From the NCBI GenBank assembly GCA_050122795.1, contig JASFIG010000001.1:1-45834 (forward strand): a DNA stretch of 45,834 nt. Reading direction: 5' to 3'. The stretch is from Desulfobacterales bacterium (lineage in GTDB: Bacteria; Desulfobacterota; Desulfobacteria; Desulfobacterales; JAHEIW01). Made by a program: the position numbers and the translations under genes. The notes below the pieces were generated by a model. It had not been told where the DNA came from, ran no database searches, and saw nothing but the letters and a program-made list of their open reading frames with translations. Positions 1,894 through 35,899 of the stretch are shown piece after piece. Position 1 is the stretch's first letter, and the number at the start of each line of letters is the position of its first letter.

Positions 1894-3801
1894 ATGGCAA
1901 ACCCTTATGACATTGCCCATAAGCAATCCATCGAAGACCCGAACGGTTTCTGGGGGACGGCAGCCGAAGACTGCCACTGGTATAAAAAGTGGGATAAGGT
2001 TCTGGATGACAGCAACAAACCGTTTTATCGCTGGTTTAGCGGCGGGGAAACGAACACGTGCTACAATGCGGTGGATTATCATATCGAAAGCGGCCGCGGT
2101 GAGCAAGATGCGATAATTTATGACTCCCCGGTTACCGATACCATCAAGAAATACACCTATAACCAGCTGCGGGATGAGGTGGCTCGGTTTGCCGGCGCGC
2201 TGGCCGCCCAGGGTGTAGCCAAGGGGGATCGGGTCCTGATTTACATGCCGATGATTCCTGAGGCCTTGATTGCCATGCTGGCCAGCGCCCGTATCGGCGC
2301 GGTGCATTCTGTGGTCTTTGGCGGGTTTGCGGCCAAAGAGCTGGCGGTGCGCATCAATGATGCCAAGCCCAAGGTGATTGTGTCCGCTTCCTGCGGTATC
2401 GAAGTCAAACGGGTTATCGCCTACAAACCGCTGCTTGACAAGGCCATTGACATGGCCGAAGCCAAACCGGATTATTGCATTATCAAACAGCGGCCCATGG
2501 AAACCGCCGCGATGATCGACGGGCGGGATCTGGACTGGGATGAAGTCACGGCCAAAGCCCAGCCGCATGAGTGTGTGCCGGTGGCGGCCACCGACCCGCT
2601 GTACATCCTGTATACCTCCGGAACCACCGGCGTGCCCAAGGGCGTGGTACGGGACAACGGCGGGCATATGGTGGCCTTGAAATGGACCATGGGCGCCATT
2701 TACAATGTGGACGCCGGTGACGTTTATTGGGCAGCATCGGATGTGGGCTGGGTTGTGGGTCACTCCTACATTGTTTATGGGCCATTATTGAAGGGGTGCA
2801 CCACGATTGTATTCGAAGGTAAACCGGTAGGAACGCCGGATGCCGGCGTTTTCTGGCGCGTGATTTCCGAGCATAACGTCAAAGTCATGTTTACGGCACC
2901 GACGGCATTTCGCGCCATCAAGCGCGAAGATCCTCAAGCGGAGCTGATGAAAAATTATGATCTGTCTAATTTTAAGGCGCTTTTTCTGGCCGGAGAACGC
3001 ACGGATCCGGATACCCTTAAATGGGCTGAAAACAGCCTGAACGTTCCGGTCATCGACCACTGGTGGCAGACGGAAACCGGCTGGGCCATCGCCGGCAATT
3101 GTCTGGGGCTGCATCATTTTCCGGTCAAGGAAGGCTCGCCCACCAAGGCGGCGCCGGGCTGGAATCTGCAGGTGGTCGACGAAAACACCCAACCGGTTGC
3201 CTCCGGGGAAATCGGCGCCCTGGTGGCCAAACTGCCGTTGCCGCCGGGCACACTTCCCACCCTGTGGAACAATGACGAGGGCTTTTTGGCGGCCTACATG
3301 GAAGAGTTTCCCGGATATTATAAAACCGCGGATGCCGGCTATATTGATGATGAAGGCTATGTTTTTGTGATGAGCCGCACCGATGACATTATCAACGTTG
3401 CCGGTCACCGGTTATCCACCGGAGCCATGGAGGAAGTTCTGGCGGATCACCCGGACGTGGCCGAATGCGCGGTTTTAGGCGTCGAAGACAAACTCAAGGG
3501 TCAGGTGCCCGTCGGTTTTTTGGTGCTGAATGCCGGTGTCGAAAGGGATTCGGCCGACATTGTCTCGGAAGTCATCCAAATGGTTCGCGATCGCATTGGG
3601 CCGGTGGCTTCTTTTAAAACCGCCACGGTGGTCAAGCGTCTGCCGAAAACGCGCTCCGGTAAAATTTTACGCGGCACCATTCAGAAAATCGCCGACAATA
3701 CGCCTTACAATGTTCCGGCGACCATCGATGATCCTACTATTCTGGACGAAATGGAGCAAGCGCTCACCGGCATCGGTTACGCCAAAGCCAGAAAAGAATA
3801 A
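1894..3801 (+). CDS. prpE: Propionate-CoA ligase / short-chain acyl-CoA synthetase (AMP-forming)
   Basis: 635 aa with an AGGAGG RBS 6 nt upstream. Family motifs present: YTSGTTGVPKG (AMP-binding), IGAVHSVVFGGFAAKELAVRINDAKPKVIVSAS, DVGWVVGHSYIVYGPLL, GRTDDIINVAGHRL and LPKTRSGKILR. The overall pattern resembles PrpE/ACSS3 more than Acs. Confidence 0.85.
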   Translation: MANPYDIAHKQSIEDPNGFWGTAAEDCHWYKKWDKVLDDSNKPFYRWFSGGETNTCYNAVDYHIESGRGEQDAIIYDSPVTDTIKKYTYNQLRDEVARFAGALAAQGVAKGDRVLIYMPMIPEALIAMLASARIGAVHSVVFGGFAAKELAVRINDAKPKVIVSASCGIEVKRVIAYKPLLDKAIDMAEAKPDYCIIKQRPMETAAMIDGRDLDWDEVTAKAQPHECVPVAATDPLYILYTSGTTGVPKGVVRDNGGHMVALKWTMGAIYNVDAGDVYWAASDVGWVVGHSYIVYGPLLKGCTTIVFEGKPVGTPDAGVFWRVISEHNVKVMFTAPTAFRAIKREDPQAELMKNYDLSNFKALFLAGERTDPDTLKWAENSLNVPVIDHWWQTETGWAIAGNCLGLHHFPVKEGSPTKAAPGWNLQVVDENTQPVASGEIGALVAKLPLPPGTLPTLWNNDEGFLAAYMEEFPGYYKTADAGYIDDEGYVFVMSRTDDIINVAGHRLSTGAMEEVLADHPDVAECAVLGVEDKLKGQVPVGFLVLNAGVERDSADIVSEVIQMVRDRIGPVASFKTATVVKRLPKTRSGKILRGTIQKIADNTPYNVPATIDDPTILDEMEQALTGIGYAKARKE

Positions 3802-3813
3802 AGTGGTATCGCT

Positions 3814-4203
3814 ATGCCCAAAGAAATACTCATCGTTGATGATGAGCCCAGCATTGTCGTTCCCATCCAATTTTTGATGGAGCAGCAGGGCTATAATGTC
3901 ATTGTTGCCAAGAACGGCGAGGATGCGCTTGACATTATCCTAAAATACAAGCCCGATCTCATCCTGCTGGATATTATGCTTCCCGGAATTGATGGGTATG
4001 AGGTCTGTGAAATCGTGCGTTTGAATCCTGATTTTAGAAATGTAAAGATCATCTTTCTGACAGCCAAGGGCCGCGAGGTCGAAATTGCCAAGGGCATGGC
4101 ACTCGGGGCGGACGCCTATATCATCAAACCGTTTTCGAATGCAGAAGTTGTGGCCAAGGTCAAAGAACTGCTTGAAAATACGCATGAAGAAACGGGGACT
4201 TAA
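3814..4203 (+). CDS. Single-domain response regulator (CheY-like REC)
   Basis: 129 aa. REC signature present: ILIVDDE, DLILLDIMLPGIDG (phospho-acceptor Asp), IFLTAKG, YIIKPF. No output domain. Confidence 0.85.
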   Translation: MPKEILIVDDEPSIVVPIQFLMEQQGYNVIVAKNGEDALDIILKYKPDLILLDIMLPGIDGYEVCEIVRLNPDFRNVKIIFLTAKGREVEIAKGMALGADAYIIKPFSNAEVVAKVKELLENTHEETGT

Positions 4204-6343
4204 ATTTTGGCAGGCAATTGCGCTATCTTGTGCAGCTTGGCTGATCATATGCATTGGTTTCGCCGTCTGGTTTAAAACCCAACTATCTGCTGAAGCGCTC
4301 AGCTTTCTTGTGGGCATCATAAAGGTTCATTTCGGACCGCTTCTTATCCTGACCGTGCTTTTGCTGCTGTCCAGCGCTCTGTTTCTGGACCTTATGTTGC
4401 GCAAATACATCCGGCCGTTGCGTAAAATTAGCGAGCAAGTTTCATTGGTGAATCCCACCAATCCATCCCACCGCTTTGAGATTACCGGTGCCGCCGAGAT
4501 TCAACAGCTTTGCGATCGTTTAAACGAAGGGGCGGCGCATTACGAATCCCTGTTGAATGATATCCAGGGCCGCGTTAATACGGCCAGGGCCCAATCGGAG
4601 GAAGAAAAAAACATCCTGGCGGCGATCATGTCGGAGTTGCCTGAAGGGGTGATTGTGTGCAATCCCGACGGCCAGATACTGCTGTACAATAACCGTGCAA
4701 AACACATGGTTTCGGGAGAGGGCGATAGCAGCCATGAAACATCCATACGGTTTATCGGCCTGGGGCGTTCGGTTTTCGAAGTTTTTGACGAAAACCTGAT
4801 GCGGCACACCATTGATCAGATCACTGAAAAATTAAAAAAGAACGAACCGAATGTGGTTTACCATTTCGTCTCTCCGGGGGCCGAAAATACCTTGCTTCGG
4901 ATCGAGGCAGTGCCGGTCCTGGACTACCGCAAGCACTACACCGGTTTAATTCTGATTCTAACCGATATTACCCAGCAGCTCGAATCTCAAAATTTTTTAA
5001 ATCTCACATTACAGTCTTTTACCCGCGGCATTCGGGCTTCCTTTGCCGGTATCCGCTCGGCCATTGAAACCATCCTGGATTTCCCGGATATGGATGTCAA
5101 TCGCCTCGAAACACTCAAGCAGATTATTCACAAAGAGTCGCTGAACATCGGCAGCATTTTAGAGCGCGACCCAACGCTGTCATCGCAACCCATGTACAAT
5201 CAGTGGCCGCTGACACGGATTGCGGTGCGCGACCTGTTTGAGATGCTGCAGGCCCGCTGTCGCCAAAATCCAAAGCTCCGGATTTTAACAGAGAATCTGT
5301 CCGCCGAGCATACGGTCAGTGTCGACCATTCTTCCTTTCTGCTGGCTTTGCTGTACATTATCCACCAGATCCAGACCGCCACCGGCGTGACTGAAATGTC
5401 ATGTCGTTTGAGCGAGTTGAGGCGTTTTGTCGGCCTGGATTTGCTCTGGTCGGGTCAGCCGATAAAGGCCGATGTCATGAAGGACTGGGAAACCCGGCCG
5501 CTAACGTTTGAAAAAGAAGGTCTTTCGTTAACCCTCAGACAAGTGATTGATCATCACAACGGTGAAATCGGTATATACGCATCCAAACGCCTGAAGAATA
5601 TGTTTTATGTGCGCTTTTTTCTGCCGGTTCCTTACCTGATGCGGCCCGAAAAAGCCCGGTCGTTAACGATCATACCGGAAAGCCGCCCTGAGTTTTACGA
5701 TTTTGATATGTTTTTGCAGGTGGAGGAGCAACCGGAGCTGCAGAACCGCAATTTATCAAAGCTGACCTACACGGTGTTCGATCTGGAAACCACCGGTTTG
5801 AACCCCACCGAGGGCGATGAGATCATCTCTGTTGGGGCTGTTCGCATCGTCAATGGTCGTTTACTGCAAAATGAGCGCTTCGAACAACTGGTGGACCCCC
5901 GGCGCTCGGTGCCCTGGACTTCGGTGCGGATACACGGCATTCACCCGGAGATGTTGGAGGGCATGCCGACCATCGATGAAGTGCTGCCGATGTTTCATGA
6001 TTTTGCAAAAGACACCATTCTGCTGGCTCACAACGCGGCCTTTGATATGCGTTTTTTGCAGTTAAAGGAGGCGCAAACCGGAGTGCGCTTTGTAAATCCG
6101 GTGCTGGATACATTATTGCTGTCGGCCGTCGTCCATCCGTCGCATGAAGACCATAATCTGGAAGCGATTGCCAAGCGGCTGGGAGTTCAGATTCTGGCGC
6201 GTCATACCGCCATGGGCGATGCCGTGTCGACCGGTGAAATGTTTCTCAAATTTTTGCCACTGCTGTCTCAGCAAAAAATTTTTACGCTCAAGCAGGCTCT
6301 GGAAGCTTCGCAAAAGACGTTCTATGCCCGTCAGAAATTCTAA
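4184..6343 (+). CDS. Membrane sensor (2 TM, HAMP-like, PAS-like, degenerate HisKA/HATPase-like core) fused to a C-terminal DnaQ/epsilon-type DEDDh 3'-5' exonuclease
   Basis: Start chosen at ATG 4184 (MKKRGLKFWQ...), which overlaps the REC gene stop by 20 nt. Hydrophobic helices at the N-terminus. PAS-like EEKNILAAIMSELPEGVIVCNPDGQILLYNNRA. H-box-like FTRGIRASFAGIRSAIE with no His. HATPase-like tail HHNGEIGIYASKRLKNMFYVRFFLP without G-boxes. Exonuclease motifs are intact: VFDLETTGL (ExoI), LLAHNAAFDMRFL (ExoII), HTAMGDAVSTGEMF (ExoIII, H-x4-D). Confidence 0.75.
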   Translation: MKKRGLKFWQAIALSCAAWLIICIGFAVWFKTQLSAEALSFLVGIIKVHFGPLLILTVLLLLSSALFLDLMLRKYIRPLRKISEQVSLVNPTNPSHRFEITGAAEIQQLCDRLNEGAAHYESLLNDIQGRVNTARAQSEEEKNILAAIMSELPEGVIVCNPDGQILLYNNRAKHMVSGEGDSSHETSIRFIGLGRSVFEVFDENLMRHTIDQITEKLKKNEPNVVYHFVSPGAENTLLRIEAVPVLDYRKHYTGLILILTDITQQLESQNFLNLTLQSFTRGIRASFAGIRSAIETILDFPDMDVNRLETLKQIIHKESLNIGSILERDPTLSSQPMYNQWPLTRIAVRDLFEMLQARCRQNPKLRILTENLSAEHTVSVDHSSFLLALLYIIHQIQTATGVTEMSCRLSELRRFVGLDLLWSGQPIKADVMKDWETRPLTFEKEGLSLTLRQVIDHHNGEIGIYASKRLKNMFYVRFFLPVPYLMRPEKARSLTIIPESRPEFYDFDMFLQVEEQPELQNRNLSKLTYTVFDLETTGLNPTEGDEIISVGAVRIVNGRLLQNERFEQLVDPRRSVPWTSVRIHGIHPEMLEGMPTIDEVLPMFHDFAKDTILLAHNAAFDMRFLQLKEAQTGVRFVNPVLDTLLLSAVVHPSHEDHNLEAIAKRLGVQILARHTAMGDAVSTGEMFLKFLPLLSQQKIFTLKQALEASQKTFYARQKF

Positions 6344-6485: not shown

Positions 6486-9263
6486 TTAAGAAGTGGGGGC
6501 GGTCTCGCGGGAGGTGGGCAACGTGAACGAAAAAGTGGATCCTTCGCCGGGCTTGCTTTCGACCCATATGCGTCCGTGGTGGAAATCAATAATGCGCTTG
6601 CTGATGGTCAGGCCAATGCCCGTTCCATAAGGCCGGCCCCGGGCGGGATCTTTTATCTGGTGGAATTTTTCAAATATCTTGTCCTGGTCGCGGCTGCGAA
6701 TGCCAATACCGTTGTCCTGGACATCGACCTGTACCTGCTGTTCGCTGGCTGTCAATCGAATGGTTATTTTACCGCGATCGGAGTCGCAAAATTTGACGGC
6801 ATTTGAGATCAGGTTCACCATGACCTGTACCAGCCGGTCACGATCGCCGGAAATGAGAGGGGGGTTGTCGGTCAATTCATAATCGATGGTGATCTTTTTA
6901 TCTTCAACCAGTTGACGGGTGCTGGCAACCGCGTCCTGAATGACCACTTTGATATCGGTTGCAATGATGACCCAGTCCATCTGGGCGGATTCGATTTTTT
7001 CATAATCCAGCACCTGGTTGATCAGTCGGGTCAACCGCTCGCTTTCTTTAATGATGATACCGGTAAAGTTTTTGTGCTGGTCTGCGCCGATTTCCGGATT
7101 GGTGTGCAGGATTTCAGCCAGGGAGCGGACCGACGTCAGCGGGGTGCGCAACTCGTGCGTAACAGTTGAGATAAATTCGTCTTTAAGGCGGTCCAGATCC
7201 TTGAGGCGGCGGTTGGCTTCCTGAAGCTCGGCGGTGGCCTTCTCAAGTTCCCGGCTGTAGGCAATCACCTGCCGGGTCTCATCGAGGATGTTCAAGACTT
7301 CCTCGATACCCAGTGATTCTTCCTTGACCACTGAGGCGACCATGACCCGGGCGGATGCCGAGCCAATAGCGCCGGCCAGCAATCTTTCAGCGTAGCCGAC
7401 CAGATTGGCATCGGCGGTTACCAGGTAGTTCCAGCTGAGTTTGCGTTTATTGGCGTAGTCGGCCAGCGCCTCATCGGTGCGCTGTCGGCCCAGAAAGCGT
7501 ATCAACAGGGATTTAAGGTCCGGCAGGTGGGCCGTTCCGCGCCAGAAGTGGGATCCAGCAGCTTCACCGGAATATCTGAATACGTCAACGAACAAAGCAG
7601 CCTGGGTATGCTCGATGGTGCGCGGGCGGCTGAATAAAGATACACCGACATACGCAGCGGTGTTCGCCAGCAGACTCCAGAAAACTGCATGGGAAATTTG
7701 ATTGAAGCCCTGCAAGCCAAATAATTCAAACGGCTTGAGCAGCTCAATTCCCAGCGGTCCCTGTTTGACGAAATTTTCAGCGATGATGCCGGCCGGCACC
7801 AGGGAGGGCAGGAAAAGAGTGTAAATCCACACGGCGAATCCGGCCAGCAGGCCGCAGACAGCGCCGCTGCGGGTGCCACCTTTCCAGAAGATGCCGCCCA
7901 GCAGAGCCGGTGCAAACTGGGCAACCGCGACGAAGGAGACCAGTCCCATGGAGACGAGGGCATAGAATTCGCCGATGGTGCGAAAATAGGCGTAACCCAG
8001 CAGCAGAACTAAAACGATGCTGCATCTACGAATGGTCAGCAGCAGCCCGCTGTAGTCCTGTCGCAGGCCCATCTCTTCGATGGGCAGCCGCAGCAGGACC
8101 GGCATGACCAGATCGTTACAGATCATGGTGCTTAACGCAATGGTTTCGACGATGACCATGCCGGTTGCAGCCGACATGCCGCCAAGATAAACGAATAAAG
8201 CGATGAGCTGTTGGCGTTCGGCCATCGGCAGTGTGAGCACAAATGTGTCGGCATCGACACCCCCGTGCGGAAAATGCAATATGCCGCTTAATGCCACCGG
8301 TACGACAAAGACATTAATGGCCAGAAGATACAGCGGGAATAGCCAGATCGCTTTGTTGAGGTGCTCCTCGTTGACGTTTTCGACAACGGTGATCTGAAAT
8401 TGACGCGGTAAAAATATAATCGCCAGCATCGATATCAACAGATGAATGCTCCAGTCCGCGTAACTGAATCCCTGGCCTTTTATCGTCAGGTGTTTATCGA
8501 AAATCAAGGAGCTGAGGCCACCGGATTGCCCCCCAAGGCTATTCTTCGCATCGGTAAATTGGGTGGCTTTTTGAAAAAGGTCTCCCAATCCGTTATGGAT
8601 AAAATAGGTGACAAATATCCCGACGGTCAAAAAGGCGGCCAGCTTGACAATCGATTCAAAAGCGATGGCGGCCACCAGTCCCTCATGTCGCTCGGTTGCG
8701 TCCAGGTGACGGGTGCCGAACAGAATGGCAAATACGGCCAGCAGCAGGGCAATATAAAAGGCCGGGTCGTACATAATCGGAACGTCGGAAAAACTGAATG
8801 AAACTGATACTTCGGGGTATTGGGTGATCAGCAAAAAACCGGTTGAAATCGCTTTAAGCTGCAGTGCAATATAAGGGATGACACCGATAACCGCAATGTT
8901 TGTGGCAAGCCCACCGAGGGTGGTGCTTTTACCGTAGCGGGAGGCAATAAAATCGGCAATGGAGGTAATGCGGTGAACCTTGCTGATACGGATAATTTTC
9001 TGCCAGACGGACCAGCCCAGCAGCGCCATCAGCGTCGGCCCGATGTAAATGGTTAAAAAGCCCAGTCCGCTGCTGACAGCCAGTCCGACGCTGCCGTAAA
9101 AAGTCCAGGCCGTGCAATAAACGGCCATGGAAAGTGCGTAGATGTAGGGGTTGCTGATAATGCTGCGCCCGGCATCAGCGCGTTTGTCACCATAATGGGC
9201 GATGGCGAAAAGCAACCCCATGTAGGCAAATGACACAAAAAGTATGGCCCCGGTTTCCAGCAT
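6486..9263 (-). CDS. Sensor histidine kinase with an N-terminal sodium:solute-symporter (SLC5-like) domain (CbrA/CrbS-type architecture, no receiver domain)
   Basis: 925 aa. The first ~560 aa are polytopic and SSS-like. They are followed by a coiled coil, the H-box FISTVTHELRTPLTSV and HATPase motifs (NLISNAVKF, DNGIGI, GTGIGLTISKRII). Confidence 0.85.
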   Translation of the reverse strand: MLETGAILFVSFAYMGLLFAIAHYGDKRADAGRSIISNPYIYALSMAVYCTAWTFYGSVGLAVSSGLGFLTIYIGPTLMALLGWSVWQKIIRISKVHRITSIADFIASRYGKSTTLGGLATNIAVIGVIPYIALQLKAISTGFLLITQYPEVSVSFSFSDVPIMYDPAFYIALLLAVFAILFGTRHLDATERHEGLVAAIAFESIVKLAAFLTVGIFVTYFIHNGLGDLFQKATQFTDAKNSLGGQSGGLSSLIFDKHLTIKGQGFSYADWSIHLLISMLAIIFLPRQFQITVVENVNEEHLNKAIWLFPLYLLAINVFVVPVALSGILHFPHGGVDADTFVLTLPMAERQQLIALFVYLGGMSAATGMVIVETIALSTMICNDLVMPVLLRLPIEEMGLRQDYSGLLLTIRRCSIVLVLLLGYAYFRTIGEFYALVSMGLVSFVAVAQFAPALLGGIFWKGGTRSGAVCGLLAGFAVWIYTLFLPSLVPAGIIAENFVKQGPLGIELLKPFELFGLQGFNQISHAVFWSLLANTAAYVGVSLFSRPRTIEHTQAALFVDVFRYSGEAAGSHFWRGTAHLPDLKSLLIRFLGRQRTDEALADYANKRKLSWNYLVTADANLVGYAERLLAGAIGSASARVMVASVVKEESLGIEEVLNILDETRQVIAYSRELEKATAELQEANRRLKDLDRLKDEFISTVTHELRTPLTSVRSLAEILHTNPEIGADQHKNFTGIIIKESERLTRLINQVLDYEKIESAQMDWVIIATDIKVVIQDAVASTRQLVEDKKITIDYELTDNPPLISGDRDRLVQVMVNLISNAVKFCDSDRGKITIRLTASEQQVQVDVQDNGIGIRSRDQDKIFEKFHQIKDPARGRPYGTGIGLTISKRIIDFHHGRIWVESKPGEGSTFSFTLPTSRETAPTS

Positions 9264-9557: not shown

Positions 9558-9741
9558 TACTATAAATTAATTGGATTGCAGTGTCAAATGCGTCCTGAGT
9601 TATCGGTACGCGACGTTCAGTAAATGTTATTCGAATTGGCACATGACGCCAGGTATGCTACGGTAGGATCGATCGTTGCAGATGCCCGATGCTATGCTTT
9701 ACGAGGCCCTCGAACGCCTGCCGCCAAGAACAGGAGACAGT

Positions 9742-12072
9742 ATGTCAGACCCCATCCTTACCTTTTTATCAAAGCTGGTTCCGTTTTCAAAGCTGCCGGC
9801 GGAAGAATGCAAGCGAATCGCTGAATCGGCAACCACTGAAAACTACGCCGGCGGACACAATTTGTCCGTGCAGGGACGAACGAAACTGGAGTGCATTTAT
9901 CTTGTAAAAGAAGGTATTTTAGAGCTTTTTTATGAATCCGACGGTGAAAAAGAAATGACCGGCATCATCAAAAAAGGTGAAATTTTCGGGGGCATTTCGA
10001 TCCTGATGAATGCCGGCATATCCGTTCGTTCGGTCAAAGTCGTTGAAGATGTCAGCTTATACGTGGTGCCCAAAAAGGTCTTCCTGGAAGTTGCGACCCA
10101 GTACACTGATTTTTACGAATTTTTTGCCGAGAAGTTCCGCAAGCGAATGCTGAACAAATCCTACGCATCGGTGGTCGCCGCCGGTCAGGCACTCCATTTC
10201 TTGCATGAGCTGGTACCGTTTTCGTTTCTTCCCCAAACGGATCTGGAAAAAATGGCAGCGGCGATTTCTATTATCAACTATCCCAAAGATACCATTCTGT
10301 TTGCCCAGGGGCGCTCCAAAATCGATTATCTGTACATCGTCCAAAAAGGGGCGGCCGAGCGCTACTTTGAAGAGAATGATGAAAAAAACCTGCGTGGCAT
10401 ACTGGGCGAGGGGGATATGTATGGTGGTATTTCCATGCTGGTCAACGATGGCATCGCCATAAGGACGCTGAGGGTGATTGAGGATTCCTATTTCTACATT
10501 TTGCCCAAGGAGCTGTTTTTGGAAGCCTGCCAGAAACACGGCGCCTTTTCAGACTTTTTCACCGATACCTTCGGCAAGCGGATGCTCGATCGGTCCTATG
10601 CCGAAATCATCGCCCATAACCGCAGGCCACGCGAGCAGGTCACTGATTTTTTTAATCGGCCGGTTGAAAGCATCTACAACAAAGATCTGGTTTACTGCGA
10701 TCAGAACATGCCGATCCAGGCAGCCGCTGCGGTGATGAGCGAGCACAACACAAGCTCTATTTTTGTGCGTGAGCACAGAGGTCAATTTGTCGGTGTGGTG
10801 ACCGACAATGACCTCAGAAAAAAGGTGACCGCCACCGGATATGATATCCTGAAGCCGGTTTCCGACATCATGTCATCACCGTTAAGCATGATTTCCGAAA
10901 AAGCGCTTCTTTTCGAGGCCCTGATGGAAATGATGCGAGAAAATATCAAGCACCTGGCGGTCACCAACAGCGATGATAAAGTCGTTGGTGTTATCACCAA
11001 TCGCGATTTGCTCAGAGCCCAGGGGCAGTCGCCATTGTTTATCATCCGCGAGATTATCCAGGCCAAGTTTATCAACCAGATTGTTCAGGTGCGGCAACAG
11101 GTGCCACGGTTAATTGAAACACTGATCAATACCGGCACCAAGGCTCACAATGTAACCGGTCTTTTGACGACGATTTCAGATACCACCCTGGAAAAAATCA
11201 TCGGATTCGCGCTGGACGAATTCGGCCCGCCCCCGGTCAGATTTGTTTTTATGATCCTGGGCAGCGAGGGCCGCAGAGAACAAACGTTAAAGACCGATCA
11301 GGACAATGCCATTATTTTTGAAGATGTGCCTTCCGAATCTCTTAAGAAAGTGACCCAATATTTTCTAAAATTCAGCGAGCGGGTCTGCAACTGGCTGGAT
11401 GAAGCCGGTTACGCCCTGTGCAAGGGCGGGATTATGGCCAAGAATGCCAACTGGTGCCAGCCATTGTCCACCTGGAAAAGCTATTTCAGACGCTGGATTC
11501 ATACGGCCGAGCCCGAAGCGTTGCTGCAGGCCAGTATTTTCTTCGATTTTCGATCCGGATACGGCGATGAGGAATTGATCACCGATCTGCGTCGATACCT
11601 GTTTAAGGAATTGAGCGGCTGGCCGGGATTTTTTCGCCATATGGCTGAAAATGCGATGTATTTCACCCCTCCGATCGGCTTTTTCCGCAATTTTGTGGTG
11701 GAGTCCGAAGGCGAGCACCGGGATGCCTTTGACATCAAGGCCGCCATGCAGCCAATTGTCGACTATGCCAGAATCTATGCTCTCAATCATCAAATCGACG
11801 AGACCAATACGCATGCACGCCTGAATCAACTGCTGGCCCTCAAAAAGATCAGCCCCGAGGAGCATATTGAACTGGAGACAGCCTACAGCTACATGATGCA
11901 ACAACGGTTGGCGCGCCAGGTTGAAGCCATGGTCGAAGAAAACGTAGCGCCGAATAATTATATCAACCCCAAAAAATTGTCACGTATCGAACAAACCATG
12001 CTCAAGGAAATCTTCAAGCGCGTCGAAAAATTCCAGGGCAAACTCAGTTTTGATTTTACCGGGCTGACCTAA
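9742..12072 (+). CDS. Signal-transduction protein: 2x cyclic-nucleotide-binding domain, CBS pair, DUF294 (GlnD-like) nucleotidyltransferase and DUF294_C
   Basis: Start chosen at ATG 9742, with an AGGAGA RBS at 9733-9738. Two cNMP-like repeats (LVPFSKLP...GEIFGGISILMN and LVPFSFLP...GDMYGGISMLVN). Two CBS motifs (...VGVVTDNDLRKKV and ...VGVITNRDLLRAQ). NTase motif ILGSEGRREQTLKTDQDNAIIF. Confidence 0.85.
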   Translation: MSDPILTFLSKLVPFSKLPAEECKRIAESATTENYAGGHNLSVQGRTKLECIYLVKEGILELFYESDGEKEMTGIIKKGEIFGGISILMNAGISVRSVKVVEDVSLYVVPKKVFLEVATQYTDFYEFFAEKFRKRMLNKSYASVVAAGQALHFLHELVPFSFLPQTDLEKMAAAISIINYPKDTILFAQGRSKIDYLYIVQKGAAERYFEENDEKNLRGILGEGDMYGGISMLVNDGIAIRTLRVIEDSYFYILPKELFLEACQKHGAFSDFFTDTFGKRMLDRSYAEIIAHNRRPREQVTDFFNRPVESIYNKDLVYCDQNMPIQAAAAVMSEHNTSSIFVREHRGQFVGVVTDNDLRKKVTATGYDILKPVSDIMSSPLSMISEKALLFEALMEMMRENIKHLAVTNSDDKVVGVITNRDLLRAQGQSPLFIIREIIQAKFINQIVQVRQQVPRLIETLINTGTKAHNVTGLLTTISDTTLEKIIGFALDEFGPPPVRFVFMILGSEGRREQTLKTDQDNAIIFEDVPSESLKKVTQYFLKFSERVCNWLDEAGYALCKGGIMAKNANWCQPLSTWKSYFRRWIHTAEPEALLQASIFFDFRSGYGDEELITDLRRYLFKELSGWPGFFRHMAENAMYFTPPIGFFRNFVVESEGEHRDAFDIKAAMQPIVDYARIYALNHQIDETNTHARLNQLLALKKISPEEHIELETAYSYMMQQRLARQVEAMVEENVAPNNYINPKKLSRIEQTMLKEIFKRVEKFQGKLSFDFTGLT

Positions 12073-12137: not shown

Positions 12138-15128
12138 TTATCTGCCCTTTATCCACACCGCAACCAGCACCCCCATCAGCAAAACAAGGACCACGAACAG
12201 ATACCATTCTTCGAAGGGATGCCGGGTTTCAGGTTCGAAAAGTTTATCTGCCAGACGAAACGGAATGGCTGTGTTCTTGATGCTCAGATTGAGATTGAGC
12301 GCTTGCGGTTCCACGTCATGCGGAACAGATAAGATATGCGTATAGGTTCCGTCAAGTCGATCCTGCAAGCTGCCCATCCACCTCCCTTCGGACGCCTCCA
12401 ATTTCATGGAGCCGGCATGACCGGGGCCCAAAAAGTTACCCAGAGCATCTTTGGGCGTGACGCGAATTTCATAGGCCTTAACATCTTGCTCAATGGCGGG
12501 TTGGCGAGCGGCTTCGACTGCAGTAGAAGCCGGATCGACATTGATGGTTACATATTTTTCGATGACCTTTTCGCGCTTGAACAGAATGCCGTCGCCGGTG
12601 GTTCCGGAAGTCTGAACATAAAACACATAGGTTCCCTGCTGGCGGGTATCGCTGAAACGAGCCGTATAGACGCCATCATTGGCTTTAGCATCGCCGTGGG
12701 ACTGATCATCAACCATTTGCACAGGTTCGGGGCGGGTGCGTTGCGGCAACGGAATTTGACTGTTTTTCGTCAGGTAGATCGCCTTGCGGTGGAGCGCGGA
12801 CAGGTCTTCCTGACCCTGCTTTTGCGGCACCTGCTTCAGCGCACTCAGGGGGATCGGATGTTTGGCAAACCAGTTGCCCAGACCCTCCTGTGGGCGGGTG
12901 ACCTGGATGCCAATGTCCTGCAGCCCCCTGACGGGTTGATTGCCTTCACTTAGCGAGGCACTCACAACAATGGCATCGCCGGTTTGATAAGCCTTGCGGT
13001 CAAATTTAATGTTCATTTTCAAATCCGAGCGGGTAATGACACTGTACTGGTATTTTTCGTTTTTGGCTTCAGCTGAATCGGCCAGCGAGACCTTGATTTG
13101 CCAGGGGACGGGTCCGACTTTGCCGGGTTGATTGAGAAATAGACTTTCGAAGGCAATGATCCGGAATGTATCACCGCTCGTCGTCTGAACGCCTGCGACC
13201 GGGTCTGTGAGCGTTATTTCCTGCCCGTCGGAGGAGGTGACCGTCAGCAACAGTCTGTCGCGCTGAAAAGCAACCCAGCTTAAATAGACGATGACTTTTT
13301 TGTCGGACTTGCTGATATAAAAATCATGAACCTGGGTTTCACCGCTGTTAATGACAGCCATCGGATCTGCTGCAGATTCCAGCTGCAATGTGTCGACCAA
13401 TACGGCCTTGTACCTTTCCTGCAGGGCATTGCCGGGGTCCCAGGTCCCGGGGTTGAAATTGGGGTCAGCAGTCACATCGTAAAAGCCGCCCCAAGTCCCG
13501 GTTCCAATATTATTGAGCAGATCGTGCGGAACTTCGGCCGGTTGGCCAAATCCGATCGCATGCACGTTGATAGCGGCCGCATTCAGGTTGTCAACGAGCT
13601 GGTCAATCTGCGCAGCTTCCACACCCGCTATCGCGGGGCAATTTTGAAAACCGTCGCTTAAAAGAACCAGGGCCTTGCGGCTGGCATTGCCGAAAAGACC
13701 TGATGCGGTATCGATACCGGCCAGCAACGGAGTGCTGCCGCCGGGCGTCAGGCCTGGAATGGTGGTATCAATGGCCGTAGCGATGGTGCTTTCCTGCACG
13801 AGGGCAAGATCGGAAATAATCTGGCCCTCACAGGCCTGCTGCGGCTGGCGCGGAAAAGCGGCGATGGCGAAGTTTGCGCCGCAGGGATTGAAATAATTCA
13901 GCATCCACACAAACGGGATCGCCGCCTGTTTGGCCAGGGTGATCCGCCTGGCCGGCTCGGCAACATTGACGGACCCATCATGTCCCCAGTTCATGCTGCC
14001 GGATCGGTCAAACAGCAAAACCACCGACGCATCCAGCGGCTGTGCTGCCGGTGCCGGAATAATGGGAGGGTTGCTGCCCGTCACTCCGACAATAACATCG
14101 TCAGGCGGAACCTGCTGATAGACGGCCGTGTAAAGGGCGGTGAAAATTGTCTGCGGCCAGTGGACGGTGTTCTGGTGAACAGATACAGGACCGTTGCCGG
14201 GTACTTCTAGATAATCGATATTGACGGCGTTGTCCGCCAGATTCTTTGCTAGAACTCTTCCCTGGCAATCATCGGAGGGCGTGCTGCCGCCCACAAAATC
14301 CCCGTTGTCGCCGGCATATAGCGTGACATACAGAACGCCGTCCTGAGGCGGCGATCCCGGTGGCCGGCTGCCGGGTGCCTCGCTCGCATAATCGATGGAG
14401 GGATCGAAGTTGGCGGCACGGGTGTCCTGAATGTCGTGGCCATTGAGGTCTGCGATGAAATCTTCAGCGTCCGCACCCAAAGACCAACAAGTCACTCCAC
14501 CGTAGCCATTGTTGAGCTGTCTGGCGGCCAGGCTGGCACTGGGCAATACGGGCATGTTTAATCCATGATTGGGCGGCGCGATGGCAATAAACGCCGAAAC
14601 CGGGATATCGCTATTGTTGTCATGAAGATTTTTTATATACGTGCGTGAGCTGAGTGTGCCCTTGCTGTAGGCGATGATCACCACTTTCAGATCCGGGTTG
14701 TTCGGGTCCTGCGGCTGATGGCGTGCCAGAATGCTATCAATGGCGTCCCCAATATCCGCGGCATCCAGCGCAATGGAGCGCCCCTGGTCCTCAAAGTAAA
14801 TGAAGTAGGGCTCGATGCCCAGGCAGGCGTTTTGTGGTAACGCCAGGGTCTGTTTGAAAGAGGGCAGGTTGCCCAGCGAATGCCACCAGTTTTTCTGATA
14901 ATTCGGATTGCTCGGGTCCGGGTTGGGATCATGGCCATGGACGAATAAAACCGGGATTTTGCGTGCGGGTGGCGCGGAGTTTTCAGTCAATTGGCTGCCA
15001 TCGTTCAGAAAAACCGTGGCTGCGGCTACTTGCGGGGCTAAGTTCGGCAGCGTGGCAGCCAGAAACAACATCACTGCAACCCCGCTACAAACGATAAAGA
15101 ATCGGCTGTGATTTCGTTTTTTTACCAT
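12138..15128 (-). CDS. Large secreted, C-terminally membrane-anchored protein: alpha/beta-hydrolase (lipase-like), vWA domain and beta-rich Ig-like region
   Basis: Start chosen at ATG 15128 (MVKKRNHS..., GGAG RBS). Signal peptide ends ...PQVAAA. VLFVHGH plus the nucleophile elbow A-Y-S-K-G (an AxSxG lipase-type motif). vWA MIDAS residues VVLLFDRSGSMNW, GGSTPL and LVLLSDGFQN. Terminal TM helix WYLFVVLVLLMGVLVAVWIKGR. Confidence 0.75.
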   Translation of the reverse strand: MVKKRNHSRFFIVCSGVAVMLFLAATLPNLAPQVAAATVFLNDGSQLTENSAPPARKIPVLFVHGHDPNPDPSNPNYQKNWWHSLGNLPSFKQTLALPQNACLGIEPYFIYFEDQGRSIALDAADIGDAIDSILARHQPQDPNNPDLKVVIIAYSKGTLSSRTYIKNLHDNNSDIPVSAFIAIAPPNHGLNMPVLPSASLAARQLNNGYGGVTCWSLGADAEDFIADLNGHDIQDTRAANFDPSIDYASEAPGSRPPGSPPQDGVLYVTLYAGDNGDFVGGSTPSDDCQGRVLAKNLADNAVNIDYLEVPGNGPVSVHQNTVHWPQTIFTALYTAVYQQVPPDDVIVGVTGSNPPIIPAPAAQPLDASVVLLFDRSGSMNWGHDGSVNVAEPARRITLAKQAAIPFVWMLNYFNPCGANFAIAAFPRQPQQACEGQIISDLALVQESTIATAIDTTIPGLTPGGSTPLLAGIDTASGLFGNASRKALVLLSDGFQNCPAIAGVEAAQIDQLVDNLNAAAINVHAIGFGQPAEVPHDLLNNIGTGTWGGFYDVTADPNFNPGTWDPGNALQERYKAVLVDTLQLESAADPMAVINSGETQVHDFYISKSDKKVIVYLSWVAFQRDRLLLTVTSSDGQEITLTDPVAGVQTTSGDTFRIIAFESLFLNQPGKVGPVPWQIKVSLADSAEAKNEKYQYSVITRSDLKMNIKFDRKAYQTGDAIVVSASLSEGNQPVRGLQDIGIQVTRPQEGLGNWFAKHPIPLSALKQVPQKQGQEDLSALHRKAIYLTKNSQIPLPQRTRPEPVQMVDDQSHGDAKANDGVYTARFSDTRQQGTYVFYVQTSGTTGDGILFKREKVIEKYVTINVDPASTAVEAARQPAIEQDVKAYEIRVTPKDALGNFLGPGHAGSMKLEASEGRWMGSLQDRLDGTYTHILSVPHDVEPQALNLNLSIKNTAIPFRLADKLFEPETRHPFEEWYLFVVLVLLMGVLVAVWIKGR

Positions 15129-15243
15129 GATATGACTCCAATCATTTAGATAACATGACGGTTTGCGGTGGGCCCAGTATTCAGAAAGGATCTTTTGCAA
15201 AGATAATTGAAATTTAAATATCGGAGGTCAATAGAATTGTCAA

Positions 15244-23570: not shown

Positions 23571-26255
23571 GTGAACATGACCATCCGCAAAAAAATGATC
23601 CTGATTCTGCTGGCATGTACGATCGTGCCGATGTGTTTTGTCGGTCTGCTTGGATACTATCATGCCAGGAAAAGTCTGGAATCCCTGAGGATAGAGCAGC
23701 TGAGAAGTATTGCCGACCTCAAGGCCGTGCGGATCAATGATTTTTACGTCGATCAGCAAAGACACATCAAGATGGCGCAGCAACGCCCCACTCTAAAAAA
23801 ATATGCCGCTGTTGCGGCAGAATTTGCGAATGACTTTTCCGGCCCGGCCTATGAAACCATCCAGGATGAACTGGACCAAGCACTGCGCATCTACCAGCCG
23901 CTTTATGATTTCAAAAATGTCATTCTGGCAAACCCTGAGAGTCAAATCGTTTACGTTTTGGAGCGATCTTTAAGCTGGCAAATGCTGGGTCAGGCCCTGC
24001 CGGATTTGTGGCGGGAATCATTTCAGGATGCCCCTGACCGAATCCAACTTTCAGATGTTGTGGCAAGTCAAAACCAGGCCGGCAGATTTTCGATGTTCTT
24101 CCTGGCACCGATCCAATCTGATGGCGGGCAGTTGGTCGGGGTGGCTGTGTTTGAATCCGACATGGCGCCGATTTACGATCTCATTCAAGATGCGACCGGG
24201 TTGGGAAATACCGGCGAAACTTTAATTGCCAGAAAAAATGGCGATCAAGCCCTGTTTCTTAATCCCCTTCGTCATGATCCCGATGCAGCCTTAAAAAGAA
24301 AGATTGACTTTGGAGAAAAACAAGCCATCCCTATTCAAGAGGCCCTCAAAGGCAACAATGGAAGTGGAATATCTGTGGACTACCGCGGGCAGGAAGTTAT
24401 CGCAGCCTGGCGCTATATTCCATCACTGGATTGGGGGATGGTGGCCAAGATCGATATTGCGGAGGCCTTTGAACCCGTTACCGCGCTGCGAGATTTTGTT
24501 CTCATCCTTGGCATTGCAGTCATTGTGCTCAGCATCTTTGTTGCATATATGGTTGCCAAGTCCATTTCTGATCCGATTCAAGCCCTGCAGCAAGGCGTGG
24601 TAGAAGTCGGTCGAGGCAATTTAGGCCACAAAGTCGCAACTGACGCCAAGGATGAAATCGGACAGCTGGGGCGAACATTCGACCAAATGACCGAACAGCT
24701 AAAGGCAGTGACGGCTTCAAGGGATGAATTGGATAGAGAAATAAAAAAACGCAGGAAGGTTGAGAAAGAACTCCAAAAAAGTATGAATGAGGTGGGCGAG
24801 CGGATCAAAGAGCTGAATTGCCTTTTTGAGATATCCCGTCTGGTGGAAAAACGAGAGCTGACTTTAGAGGAAATCCTCCAGGGCCTCGTTGATCTCATTC
24901 CACCGGCCTTTCAGTACCCGGAAATAACCTGTGCCGAAATTATGATAGAAAATCAAAAATTCAGCACCGGTAATTTTGAAAAAACTCAATGGATGCTTAG
25001 CCAACATATTGTAATATTTAAAAATACAGTTGGAACTTTAGCTGTTTATTATCTCGATGAAAGACCGCAAAGTGATGAAGGGCCTTTTTTAGAGGAAGAA
25101 AGAAATTTGGTCAATACGATTGCTGAACGAATTGGACGAATTATAGAGCGTAATCGAGCTCAAACAGCTTTAGTCGAAAGCGAGAAACGCTTTCGGCAAT
25201 TAGTGGAACATTCCTTAACGGGCATATCGATCATTCAAGATGGCCACATCGTTTATCAGAACCCTGAACAGGAAAGGCTACTGGGTCCCTTACCGCGGCC
25301 GATCAAATTTGCAGACACGGACTCTATCCACCCGGACGATGTTGAAAAAGTAAATCAATTTTATCAAAGCATCAGCACAGGCAAGTTGCCCATTGGCGTT
25401 ACGGATTTCAGATTTTATCCATCCGGCGGAAAAATCAGCCACAGCAATATGAAATGGGTCCACTGCCAGGCCAGCCGGATCGAATTTCAGGGAAAAGATG
25501 CGATGTTGGTCAATATGATGGATATGACCAAAACCAAAGAGCTGGAATATCTTTTGACCGTCCAGGATAAGATGGCTTCTTTGGGCCGGGTGGCAGCCGG
25601 GATCGCACATGAAATTCGCAACCCGCTTTCAGGAATCAATATCTATCTAAACACGCTTAAAAAGCTTCACCACCGGGAGGGAACGGAAGAAAAGGTTGAG
25701 CAAATATTGAATCAAATTCAATCGGCTTCTATAAAAATTGAATCCGTAATTCGCAGGGTCATGGATTTCGCCAAACCCGGCGAACCGAAGTTGGAGTTAA
25801 TTGATATTAATGAACCCATCGCAGATGCGATCAACCTCACTGCAGTGACAATGCGTAAAAGTCGCATAAAAATTGAGAAGTCATTAGCAAATGACGTGCC
25901 GCGATCGCATGCTGATAGAAATCTAATCGAAGAGATCGTTTTAAACCTGTTGAACAACGCTGTCGAAGCCATGAAAGGCATGGAAGTGAGTAAAAAGATT
26001 GACATTGCATCGTTTACAGAAGGCGGGCACATTATTATCCAGATCTCTGATTCAGGCCCGGGTGTTCCGCTAGAAATCAGGAATAAAATATTCGACCCGT
26101 ATTTTACCACGAAACACGAAGGTACCGGTATCGGTCTGAGTTTATGTCACCGAATCATCAACGATCATGGTGGAACCTTAACTGTAGCGGACAGCCATTT
26201 AGGGGGAGCGGAGTTTCGGGTCGAAATTCCGATTCAAAAAAAAGCGAACACCTAA
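23571..26255 (+). CDS. Multi-domain sensor histidine kinase (TM, periplasmic double-Cache-like domain, TM, HAMP, GAF-like, PAS, HisKA, HATPase)
   Basis: 894 aa. The start may be GTG 23571 or ATG 23577. TM helices at ~aa 9-30 and ~310-330 flank a ~280-aa periplasmic domain. HAMP (DEIGQLGRTFDQMTEQL). PAS (ESEKRFRQLVEHSLTGISIIQDG). NtrB-type H-box AAGIAHEIRNPLSGI. HATPase motifs LLNNAVEA, DSGPGV, GTGIGLSLC. Confidence 0.85.
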   Translation: MNMTIRKKMILILLACTIVPMCFVGLLGYYHARKSLESLRIEQLRSIADLKAVRINDFYVDQQRHIKMAQQRPTLKKYAAVAAEFANDFSGPAYETIQDELDQALRIYQPLYDFKNVILANPESQIVYVLERSLSWQMLGQALPDLWRESFQDAPDRIQLSDVVASQNQAGRFSMFFLAPIQSDGGQLVGVAVFESDMAPIYDLIQDATGLGNTGETLIARKNGDQALFLNPLRHDPDAALKRKIDFGEKQAIPIQEALKGNNGSGISVDYRGQEVIAAWRYIPSLDWGMVAKIDIAEAFEPVTALRDFVLILGIAVIVLSIFVAYMVAKSISDPIQALQQGVVEVGRGNLGHKVATDAKDEIGQLGRTFDQMTEQLKAVTASRDELDREIKKRRKVEKELQKSMNEVGERIKELNCLFEISRLVEKRELTLEEILQGLVDLIPPAFQYPEITCAEIMIENQKFSTGNFEKTQWMLSQHIVIFKNTVGTLAVYYLDERPQSDEGPFLEEERNLVNTIAERIGRIIERNRAQTALVESEKRFRQLVEHSLTGISIIQDGHIVYQNPEQERLLGPLPRPIKFADTDSIHPDDVEKVNQFYQSISTGKLPIGVTDFRFYPSGGKISHSNMKWVHCQASRIEFQGKDAMLVNMMDMTKTKELEYLLTVQDKMASLGRVAAGIAHEIRNPLSGINIYLNTLKKLHHREGTEEKVEQILNQIQSASIKIESVIRRVMDFAKPGEPKLELIDINEPIADAINLTAVTMRKSRIKIEKSLANDVPRSHADRNLIEEIVLNLLNNAVEAMKGMEVSKKIDIASFTEGGHIIIQISDSGPGVPLEIRNKIFDPYFTTKHEGTGIGLSLCHRIINDHGGTLTVADSHLGGAEFRVEIPIQKKANT

Positions 26256-26282
26256 CCGCTTTCCAAAAACCAGGAGTAAGTG

Positions 26283-28713: not shown

Positions 28714-32280
<3,567 letters not shown>

Positions 32281-32463
32281 TATGAAAATTTGGGTGGTCC
32301 GTATTGGCGGTTGGATTCTATCCGTTGTTTATTGGTTATGCGGAATTAAATACTGGGATTTATTCGGTGGCCGCCAAAATGATGATCGGTCAAATCACAG
32401 AATCCGCAAATTAAATGATAATCGTTTAAGATAGCCATACCATTCAAAAGGAGAAGATCCTTT

Positions 32464-32709
32464 ATGGCGTTTAAATTTCAAATTGACGAAGATCGGTGTA
32501 AGGGATGCGGGCTGTGTGTAAGTGTATGCCCTAAAAAAGTTTTGGAAATTTCCGAAAATGTGAACGCTAGGGGTTACTTTCCGGTCTATCAGGCGCGACC
32601 GGAAGATTGTAATTTCTGCGCGCTGTGCTGCGTGATGTGTCCGGATGTAGCGATCGAAATTATTGAAATCGCGGAAGAGGCGCCTTCAAAAACAAAAGAA
32701 GCTGCTTGA
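32464..32709 (+). CDS. 2x[4Fe-4S] ferredoxin-type delta subunit of 2-oxoacid:ferredoxin oxidoreductase
   Basis: 81 aa. CKGCGLCVSVCP and CNFCALCCVMCP. AAGGAG RBS. Confidence 0.8.
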   Translation: MAFKFQIDEDRCKGCGLCVSVCPKKVLEISENVNARGYFPVYQARPEDCNFCALCCVMCPDVAIEIIEIAEEAPSKTKEAA

Positions 32710-32790
32710 AACCAGAAACAGGTAAAATAGAATACGTTATAATGGATCAATACAGCGAAGGGACTTTGATTTACGTTAATGGGGGATAGA

Positions 32791-33861: not shown

Positions 33862-33973
33862 TTAAATGGTCGACGGGTTGAATTAATTTAAAGTTTAACC
33901 ATCTGTCCTTTTTATATCAAACGAATTAACCAGTTGACCATTCAACCGATTGACTGAACATAGGAGAAAATAA

Positions 33974-34741: not shown

Positions 34742-34816
34742 CGCAACTGAAAGAAGTTGTTCTTTTTACAGCCGTAATGAACGATCCGCTATCAGCTCAA
34801 ATGGGGAGGCAATCCG

Positions 34817-35883: not shown

Positions 35884-35899
35884 TGGCATAATTCATGCA
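35884..35899 (+). promoter_or_regulatory. sigma54 promoter for the GAF-kinase / activator operon
   Basis: TGGCATAATTCATGCA. Its -12 box overlaps the first in-frame ATG (35895) of the kinase ORF. Confidence 0.5.

Follow-up and report, generated by a model that had tools for sequence, protein, structure and literature searches.

A membrane pseudo-histidine kinase fused to a predicted DEDDh exonuclease in a conserved gene cassette linked to short-chain carboxylate activation

A 45,834-nt stretch of a Desulfobacterales bacterium genome (assembly GCA_050122795.1, contig JASFIG010000001.1, positions 1–45,834 of the forward strand; hereafter the window) was analysed around the open reading frame (ORF) at 4184–6343 on the + strand, which encodes a protein of 719 amino acids (aa). 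Two-component systems are among the best-studied bacterial signalling devices, and to our knowledge nearly all of them act through transcription factors, cyclic-di-GMP enzymes or chemotaxis proteins. The original prediction, made from the letters of the sequence, had read this protein as a membrane pseudo-histidine kinase fused to an intact DEDDh 3'-5' exonuclease and had called the architecture uncharacterised. Profile-profile alignment, structure prediction and residue counts across the family bore out the fusion, and literature searches turned up no account of a DEDDh exonuclease joined to a kinase-like scaffold. By gene order, the protein belongs to a conserved cassette made up of an acyl-CoA synthetase, a transporter-like sensor kinase, a single-domain receiver (REC), the pseudo-kinase/exonuclease and a CBS/cNMP-regulated DUF294 nucleotidyltransferase. 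That the kinase (6486–9263) and the DUF294 gene (9676–12072) are part of the same conserved cassette had been missed earlier, and this link is the main clue to function.

Domain architecture of the 719-aa protein

The gene was delimited from its ORF, its translation and its homologues. The frame opens mechanically at a TTG at 4085; the ATG at 4184 is the start position of 107 full-length homologues (55–100% identity, 715–731 aa), which share the N-terminus MK..G.KFW with the window protein, and a mis-called start was ruled out by these lengths and N-termini. The stop codon occupies 6341–6343. For structure prediction, an AlphaFold2 (AF2) model built from 42 close homologues was poor (pLDDT 59.7, exonuclease below 50) and was superseded by a model built from a 96-sequence alignment that included distant representatives (pLDDT 82.7, pTM 0.61).

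The transmembrane (TM) N-terminus, HAMP-like linker and PAS-like domain that had been proposed were recovered from the AF2 model, alignments to WalK and Pfam PAS matches. Residues ~6–72 (4199–4399, + strand) are predicted to form two TM helices with a very short outer loop and no periplasmic sensor domain (AF2 helices 4–33 and 36–89, with almost no loop between them on the outer side). They are followed at residues ~73–144 (4400–4615, + strand) by a HAMP-like helix-loop-helix that in the AF2 model runs on into a long signalling helix. Pfam HAMP gave no match in the window protein even at E 0.1, and the TM and HAMP assignments draw on three sources: how hydrophobic the sequence is, the helices of the AF2 model and an alignment with full-length WalK. 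NCBIfam aligned residues 59–270 to WalK 184–370 (its HAMP-PAS part), and the top Foldseek match was a full-length WalK model with about 480 aligned columns. A PAS domain was placed at residues ~145–265 (4616–4978, + strand), where PAS_9 (27.2 bits, cut-off 27) and PAS_4 (25.6 bits, cut-off 23.1) matched residues 151–265 barely over their cut-offs and AF2 gave a five-stranded PAS sheet spanning 155–261. Within this domain N169 and GLGRS 192–196 are nearly invariant across the 96 sequences, and C159, G163 and Y168 are conserved at 90% or more.

The next region had been said to have the layout of a HisKA/HATPase core. Pfam HisKA and HATPase_c gave no match in the window protein even at E 0.1 and were absent from the precomputed Pfam domains of 120 homologues, and NCBIfam was likewise without matches to them or to HAMP; kinase homology was therefore established through profile-profile alignment and structure. 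The cores of 84 family representatives (29–44% identical to the window protein, and the source of all residue counts given here) were aligned in hhalign to the cores of 61 neighbouring true kinases with a probability of 99.6% (E 8e-24, 214 columns). The AF2 model has hairpin helices at 263–299 and 305–327, then an alpha/beta sandwich at 344–481. Foldseek of the first 480 residues against the PDB returned WalK, VicK (4i5s), YF1 (4gcz), ThkA (3a0r) and HK853 at E 2e-18 to 1e-8, and among the matches were also NifL and phytochrome A, which are degenerate kinase-like regulators. The region was accordingly divided into a DHp-like helical hairpin at residues 263–327 (4970–5164, + strand) and a degenerate CA (HATPase_c-like) domain at residues 342–481 (5207–5626, + strand).

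In the profile alignment T-H-E-L-R-T-P-L of the kinases is matched with T-R281-G-I-R284-A-S-F. This puts R281 (nt 5024–5026) opposite the acceptor His, and R284 is the conserved Arg of the HELRTP H-box. An alignment by eye had put Ala at this position, and here the earlier reading was corrected, with R281 and not A285 standing opposite the His. Most family members carry Glu there (E 46, T 7, K 6, Q 6, R 5, D 4 and H 1 among the 84), and no DHp position holds a conserved His in this set. The ATP-lid G-boxes are missing, as had been noticed, and the N-box Asn residues are lost too. The two N-box Asn positions are Y391 and Q395 in the window protein (F/Y and R/Q in the family), the G1 Asp is W422 (Trp in 81/84), the G2 motif GxGLGL reads EGLSLTL, and the ATP lid is shortened, with much of it gone. 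At H+4, the phosphatase-motif residue (Thr/Asn) is replaced by Ala, Ser or Gly in the family. The protein thus has the DHp hairpin and Bergerat-fold CA layout of a class I sensor histidine kinase by hhalign and Foldseek, and lacks the acceptor His, the N-box, G1 and G2 ATP-binding residues and a score at the Pfam gathering level. Because these residues are lost family-wide in the profile alignment, with His at the equivalent position in 1/84, the sequence evidence argues for a genuine pseudo-kinase over a conventional kinase whose His had been mis-aligned. With the acceptor His and the ATP-binding residues gone, the protein is predicted to be incapable of autophosphorylation and would keep the whole kinase scaffold (TM, HAMP, PAS, DHp hairpin and CA-like domain) without kinase chemistry.

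The C-terminus consists of a DEDDh (DnaQ/PolC-type) 3'-5' exonuclease domain at residues 527–690 and a conserved helical tail at 691–719 (together 5762–6340, + strand), as identified by Pfam, PDB and Foldseek searches. Pfam RNase_T (PF00929) matched residues 531–685 at E 3e-35 (122.6 bits, cut-off 24). PolC-type proofreading domains are 36–39% identical to the domain (PDB 2p1j, E 3e-30), and in Foldseek the model was superposed on the PolC proofreading domain with a root-mean-square deviation of 1.5 A over 187 columns; TM-scores normalised to the target were 0.84–0.88 against epsilon and DnaQ domains. The RNase H-like exonuclease fold was modelled with pLDDT ~90 over residues 527–700. The motifs DLETTG, HNAAFD and H674-x4-D679 are all present, as first read, and the catalytic residues D533, E535, D621, H674 and D679 are each kept in at least 81/84 representatives, so that hidden substitutions, which had been a concern, were not found. 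Judged by these residues the domain is catalytically intact, and it is predicted to be a metal-dependent 3'-5' exonuclease. In NCBIfam the C-terminus aligned to the exonuclease domains of PolC, DinG and DnaQ, always far under the equivalog cut-offs (TIGR01406, 105.3 bits against 222.7; PRK05711, 98.6 bits against 196). On the TIGR01406 score the name 'DNA polymerase III subunit epsilon' is not justified; DnaQ proper is a small soluble subunit with a C-terminal alpha-binding segment, whereas the window protein is a 719-aa membrane protein ending in a ~30-residue family-specific tail.

The CA-like domain and the exonuclease are joined by a linker with the conserved motif SRPEFYDFDMF (residues 500–510; 5681–5713, + strand). 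Residues 497–516, which contain this SRPEFYDFD(L/M)F motif, have pLDDT below 50 and are predicted to be flexible, and R501, P502, D506, F507, L509 and F510 are conserved at 90% or more across the 96 sequences. The DFDLF end resembles the QL(S/D)LF beta-clamp-binding pentapeptide; the motif could equally be a docking or autoinhibitory peptide.

Family spread and the conserved cassette

When a profile of the core alone (residues 265–520) was searched against clusters made at 50% identity, 584 of them matched with E no higher than 0.001 and 370 with E no higher than 1e-10. Among the 150 matches listed, most are 700–740 aa long and have the core at residues ~260–530. Genomic loci were taken for the best 80 of 498 confirmed relatives, one genome per species, and all locus counts are from these. 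Carriers in this set are Desulfobacterales, many Betaproteobacteria of the Rhodocyclales and Burkholderiales (including Thauera, Zoogloea, Dechloromonas, Azonexus, Accumulibacter, Hydrogenophaga and Rhodoferax), Gammaproteobacteria (including Pseudomonas, Competibacter and Thiothrix), Chloroflexi and one member of the Thermoleophilia. Many are acetate-scavenging wastewater or sediment organisms (Accumulibacter, Competibacter, Dechloromonas, Zoogloea, Thauera and Desulfobacterales).

A chance origin of the architecture is excluded by its conservation as a whole across phyla. Joining of two genes by misassembly, also raised earlier, was ruled out by the 107 full-length homologues, the clusters of 700–740 aa and the at least 80 genome loci that carry the gene. 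A word-index search with the core alone returned mostly fragments, and two apparent stand-alone core proteins (P0128 and P0134). A natural split of core and exonuclease was rejected for these. At the P0134 locus (L081) every cassette gene is in pieces, including CBS and DUF294, and the split genes were therefore read as assembly frameshifts, probably a frameshift error of long-read assembly. Two metagenome-assembled genomes of Burkholderiales (L037, at 2296–4431 and 10034–11989, and L038) carry two full-length paralogues ~6 kb apart, each with its own upstream REC and with two DUF294 genes in between, from which local duplication of the pseudo-kinase/exonuclease module was concluded.

The stand-alone REC gene (3814–4203, + strand; Pfam Response_reg E 2e-28) has the residues DD 9–10, D52, T83 and K105 as read by eye, and its stop lies 20 nt past the ATG of the 4184–6343 ORF, the overlap that had suggested a co-translated pair. 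Gene context was counted by tblastn of the window proteins against the 80 loci, with the loci that had enough sequence as denominators. The pseudo-kinase/exonuclease gene was directly preceded on its own strand by REC in 70/77 loci, which span several phyla, and the commonest spacing was a 4-nt stop/start overlap (30/71, choosing the start codon nearest the stop), in agreement with co-translation.

Convergent with the pseudo-kinase gene is a true sensor histidine kinase of 925 aa (6486–9263, - strand) with HisKA and HATPase_c matches and a polytopic, transporter-like N-terminus of ~560 aa. This membrane part gave no Pfam match (no SSF) and is weakly like the VC_2705 sodium/solute symporter family (TIGR03648, E 5e-8), by which the kinase resembles the transporter-like CrbS and CbrA. 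It has no receiver domain, and its partner is the receiver-only protein. The DUF294 nucleotidyltransferase (9676–12072, + strand) was assigned by Pfam two cNMP-binding domains, a CBS pair, DUF294 and DUF294_C; a PDB sequence search with this protein matched CBS and cNMP domains only and so gave no clue to the substrate of the transferase. Immediately 5' of REC lies an acetyl/propionyl-CoA synthetase (1894–3801, + strand; NCBIfam PrpE 749 bits and Acs 639 bits, both under the equivalog cut-offs).

Across the loci, a kinase orthologue stood no more than 6 kb away in 46/57. With the limit set at 10 kb, a DUF294 gene was present in 35/44 and an Acs homologue in 26/44, and REC, kinase and DUF294 were all present in 31/44. 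Ca. Desulfobacillus denitrificans (L031), whose genome is complete, has acs, the kinase (923 aa), REC, the pseudo-kinase/exonuclease (730 aa) and CBS-DUF294 in a colinear and tightly packed row. At L081 (329–7285) a DUF485 (YjcH-like) gene and an SSF symporter adjoin CBS, DUF294, REC and the pseudo-kinase/exonuclease family, which places that cassette directly behind a yjcH-actP-type acetate permease pair. The sensor domains of the DUF294 partner vary: the partner encoded in the window combines a CBS pair with two cNMP-binding domains, and the one in L031 (12064–13521) has a CBS pair alone. Two tandem DUF294 genes stand downstream of the exonuclease gene in many betaproteobacterial loci (L040, L041, L055–L057, L059, L060, L063, L065 and L066).

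Upstream of the synthetase, the window begins inside a sodium:solute symporter gene, of which it includes the 3' part (2–1078, + strand; Pfam SSF; NCBIfam VC_2705-family, MctP and PutP), followed by a TPR protein (1183–1680) between the symporter fragment and the synthetase. Between the symporter and TPR genes, at 1117–1146, a GC-rich hairpin with a perfect 13-bp stem (GGATGAGGAGGCG-CAAG-CGCCTCCTCATCC) precedes a T-run. It is likely a terminator or attenuator that sets the transporter apart from the unit of acs, REC and exonuclease. A near-consensus sigma-70-type promoter was found at 9559–9587 (- strand; TTGACA, 17-nt spacer, TATAGT; 11/12 matches), directed towards the kinase and lying in the 412 nt that separate the divergent kinase and DUF294 genes. 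In the promoter and terminator scan as a whole, counts were at most ~2 standard deviations over shuffles, and the kinase-upstream promoter alone was noteworthy. The gene directly after DUF294, on the other strand, is a 1020-aa ORF (12138–15200, - strand) with a sub-threshold Invasin_D3 match (E 2e-5) and otherwise no Pfam domain; it possibly encodes a large surface or adhesin-like protein. Further along, genes for a large pyruvate:ferredoxin oxidoreductase and a three-subunit 2-oxoacid:ferredoxin oxidoreductase (28717–35347) are flanked by two sigma-54-type two-component pairs at 23571–27671 and 35895–38653 (a dCache-HAMP kinase with an NtrC-like regulator and a GAF kinase with an NtrC-like regulator), and the window is rich throughout in acyl-CoA/2-oxoacid metabolism and its regulation.

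A proposed gated nuclease and its alternatives

The original prediction can be extended: the 4184–6343 protein would be the gated-nuclease component of a conserved cassette linked to short-chain carboxylate activation. In the mechanism we propose, the true kinase would sense the supply of short-chain carboxylates through its symporter-like domain and phosphorylate the small receiver. The phosphorylated receiver would dock on the retained DHp surface of the dead kinase ('reverse signalling', as for DivL and DivK~P), and this docking, together with PAS/HAMP inputs, would switch the tethered exonuclease on or off. The exonuclease would strip 3'-terminal nucleotides that DUF294 puts onto an RNA, DNA or oligonucleotide substrate, and this write/erase pair would tune the expression or activity of acetate/propionate uptake and activation genes, the presumed physiological target. 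To the whole of this, in which REC~P docks on the dead kinase and gates an exonuclease opposing DUF294, we assign a probability of about 0.5. What the analysis establishes firmly is the architecture, the kinase residues lost, the nuclease residues retained and the conserved gene context. Of the proposed parts, docking of the receiver on the pseudo-kinase DHp carries moderate confidence, and low confidence attaches to antagonism with DUF294 and to what the nuclease acts on.

The case for docking was sought in the DHp itself. At ~20 DHp positions the consensus residue of the pseudo-kinase is that of the true kinase of the operon, including D at H-8, T at H-1, R+3, L+6, I+9, R+10, A+11, E+14, P+20, R+27, R+29, F+30, I+33, I+34 and E+37, and it is specifically the catalytic H, E, L, T and P that have been exchanged. 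Three of the positions, H+11, H+34 and H+37, coincide with A271, V294 and D297 (counted from H260 and taken from PDB titles), at which HK853 was mutated to rewire HK853-RR468 specificity; beyond the loop the correspondence is only approximate. Such a pattern would suit a core that descends from the true-kinase lineage and has kept a receiver-docking face.

Several observations weigh against the proposed mechanism. Co-evolution of the two DHp domains gave no signal, with 26.9% identity between pseudo- and true kinase of the same genome against 26.5% across genomes, a result that speaks neither for nor against a shared receiver; docking of the receiver is for this reason still something that we infer. 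Within the window the two DHp domains are 18% identical, little more than the 13% and 17% scored by two unrelated window kinases. No upstream REC was found in 7/77 loci, and both Competibacter loci are without the whole cassette. Support for REC binding this protein and not just the true kinase is indirect, coming from gene order and the retained non-catalytic DHp residues. Deletion of the DUF294 gene Pflu5625 in P. fluorescens had no phenotype (PMC5715377), and the DUF294 catalytic domain is classed with the protein-modifying transferases GlnD and GlnE (PMC3710099), which points away from a nucleic-acid substrate.

As for what the nuclease would act on, that a 3'-5' exonuclease is paired with a nucleotidyltransferase of the Pol-beta type suggests that the two counteract each other on a shared substrate. 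The phosphorelay may then end at a membrane-tethered 'eraser' exonuclease set against the cNMP/CBS-regulated 'writer' DUF294, the two acting on a 3'-terminal RNA tag or a linear oligonucleotide messenger and controlling acetate/propionate uptake and activation post-transcriptionally. We put this specific form forward tentatively, as one possibility. An Rfam scan of the whole window found no RNA family, and so offered no riboswitch or small-RNA candidate for the substrate.

Alternatively, the dead kinase core may be a scaffold for dimerisation and transmission only, with the TM, HAMP and PAS parts of the same protein supplying the signal that gates the exonuclease (for example a metabolite in the PAS domain, or contact with the transporter in the membrane) and with the receiver acting elsewhere, on DUF294, as a phosphate sink for the true kinase or on another target. 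The strong conservation of the PAS domain around N169, C159, G163, Y168 and GLGRS 192–196 suggests a ligand or partner site, and both the comparison of same-genome and cross-genome DHp identity and the absence of REC from some loci agree with such a scaffold. It accounts poorly for a REC gene that, in most loci and across phyla, directly precedes this one with its stop overlapping the next start, and for non-catalytic DHp positions conserved as in the REC-cognate kinase. We consider it doubtful.

The gating mechanism could also hold a different chemistry, in which DUF294, in the manner of GlnE/GlnD, would adenylylate or uridylylate a protein (the acyl-CoA synthetase or the transporter, for instance), and the DEDDh domain would cleave the protein-O-P-nucleoside phosphodiester and free a 5'-NMP. 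Release of 5'-NMP from a phosphodiester is the chemistry of DEDDh enzymes, but we know of no DEDDh enzyme that de-nucleotidylates proteins, and at 36–39% identity the window domain is closest to DNA proofreading exonucleases. Acs, a candidate target, adjoins in the gene order. DUF294_C, like DUF294, is grouped with the C-terminal domains of GlnD and GlnE (PMC3710099), which keeps a protein-linked nucleotide in play, and protein nucleotidylation was expected by the authors of the Pflu5625 work (PMC5715377). On balance this chemistry seems improbable.

Three further readings are unlikely. A proofreading or repair exonuclease of the DNA polymerase III epsilon type with merely extra domains is named in JGI and some NCBI records ('DNA polymerase III subunit epsilon'), and the PolC exonuclease is the best structural match of the C-terminal domain; the dnaQ equivalog score of 105 bits against 222.7, the membrane anchor and sensor domains, and a metabolic signalling cassette in place of replication genes leave it very little weight. 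A cryptic active kinase or phosphatase using non-canonical residues would be in keeping with the retained histidine kinase fold, and the Glu found at the His position in most members could, speculatively, mimic a phosphorylated state, but with the N-box Asn, G1 Asp and G2 glycines all lost, the lid shortened and H+4 being Ala, Ser or Gly in place of Thr/Asn, such activity is hardly to be expected. An anti-phage defence nuclease is the least probable of all, since the PADLOC models that match (Cas-associated DEDDh and PDC-S48) do so on the generic DEDDh domain alone, the neighbours are metabolic (acs, symporter) and the cassette is vertically conserved across orders and does not lie in variable islands.

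Comparison with known systems

The relatives with the same nuclease fold are the exonucleases of Pol III epsilon and PolC, which share the five catalytic residues; the window protein differs in standing outside a polymerase and in having sensor domains, a membrane anchor, the SRPEFYDFDLF linker and the C-terminal tail. On the kinase side, the kinase-related domains of NifL and of plant phytochromes and ethylene receptors are histidine kinase-like regulatory scaffolds that are no longer His kinases. None of them carries a nuclease, and the GHKL domain of NifL still binds nucleotide. The neighbouring kinase (6486–9263) is like CrbS and CbrA in its large polytopic symporter-like N-terminus, and it adjoins acs, the gene that CrbS controls (PMC5715377), but has neither a Pfam SSF domain nor a receiver domain, and its partner is not the DNA-binding CrbR.

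DivL of Caulobacter crescentus is the closest parallel for the scaffold. It is a kinase without the acceptor His whose DHp and CA output domains sense DivK~P (PMC4211667), and the window protein shares with it the membrane-attached or PAS-containing histidine kinase scaffold without the acceptor His and the pairing with a single-domain receiver. DivL has Tyr at the His position and modulates another kinase, CckA, whereas the window family has Arg or Glu there, is also without the ATP-binding residues and carries a DEDDh exonuclease in cis as its output, with receiver binding here a proposal. If that proposal is right, the family would join DivL as a second case in which a kinase scaffold has become an input for sensing a receiver, and as a widespread family of dead-kinase nucleases it would add a new kind of two-component output and may show a new way for bacterial signalling to act. 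The cassette is self-contained (kinase, receiver, gated nuclease and nucleotidyltransferase) and names the likely regulatory partners, which makes the question of what DUF294-exonuclease pairs do directly testable in vitro, and control of short-chain fatty-acid uptake in wastewater and sediment carriers is of practical interest.

The nearest parallel for the nuclease and its neighbours is in Gammaproteobacteria, where DUF294 genes are paired with DnaQ-like exonucleases by actP/acs. The exonucleases of these pairs are short, soluble and transcriptionally controlled by CrbS/CrbR. The pairs, among them PA3233/PA3232 of P. aeruginosa, Pflu5625 of P. fluorescens, Sama_1525 of Shewanella and Psest_0349 of P. 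stutzeri, combine a CBS/cNMP-DUF294 gene with a DEDDh gene and are tied to acetate, propionate or lactate transporters and to acetyl-CoA synthetase (PMC9765439, PMC5715377, 10.1101/072470). PA3232–PA3235, including ActP, are induced ~16-fold on propionate (PMC9765439). Pflu5625 belongs to the CrbS/R acetate regulon, in which CrbS controls acs, CrbS and CbrA being transporter-like sensor kinases (PMC5715377). A DUF4212-SSF symporter was cofit with a nearby 'COG2905 (RNase T domain protein)', and the authors speculated that the latter is needed for symporter expression (10.1101/072470). The window has both a DUF294 gene nearby and the link to acs and a symporter. It differs in that the exonuclease is fused to a membrane pseudo-kinase and the cassette has a kinase and receiver of its own, by which control would be post-translational. 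These pairs are co-regulated with acetate/propionate uptake in relatives among Pseudomonas, Vibrio and Shewanella, without known activity or substrate; if the writer/eraser form of the mechanism were true, it would supply a new class of output and a function for the long-unexplained DUF294-exonuclease pair by acs/actP. Pseudo-kinase sensors and DEDDh nucleases are each already known separately; what appears new here is their union in one widespread, unstudied family.

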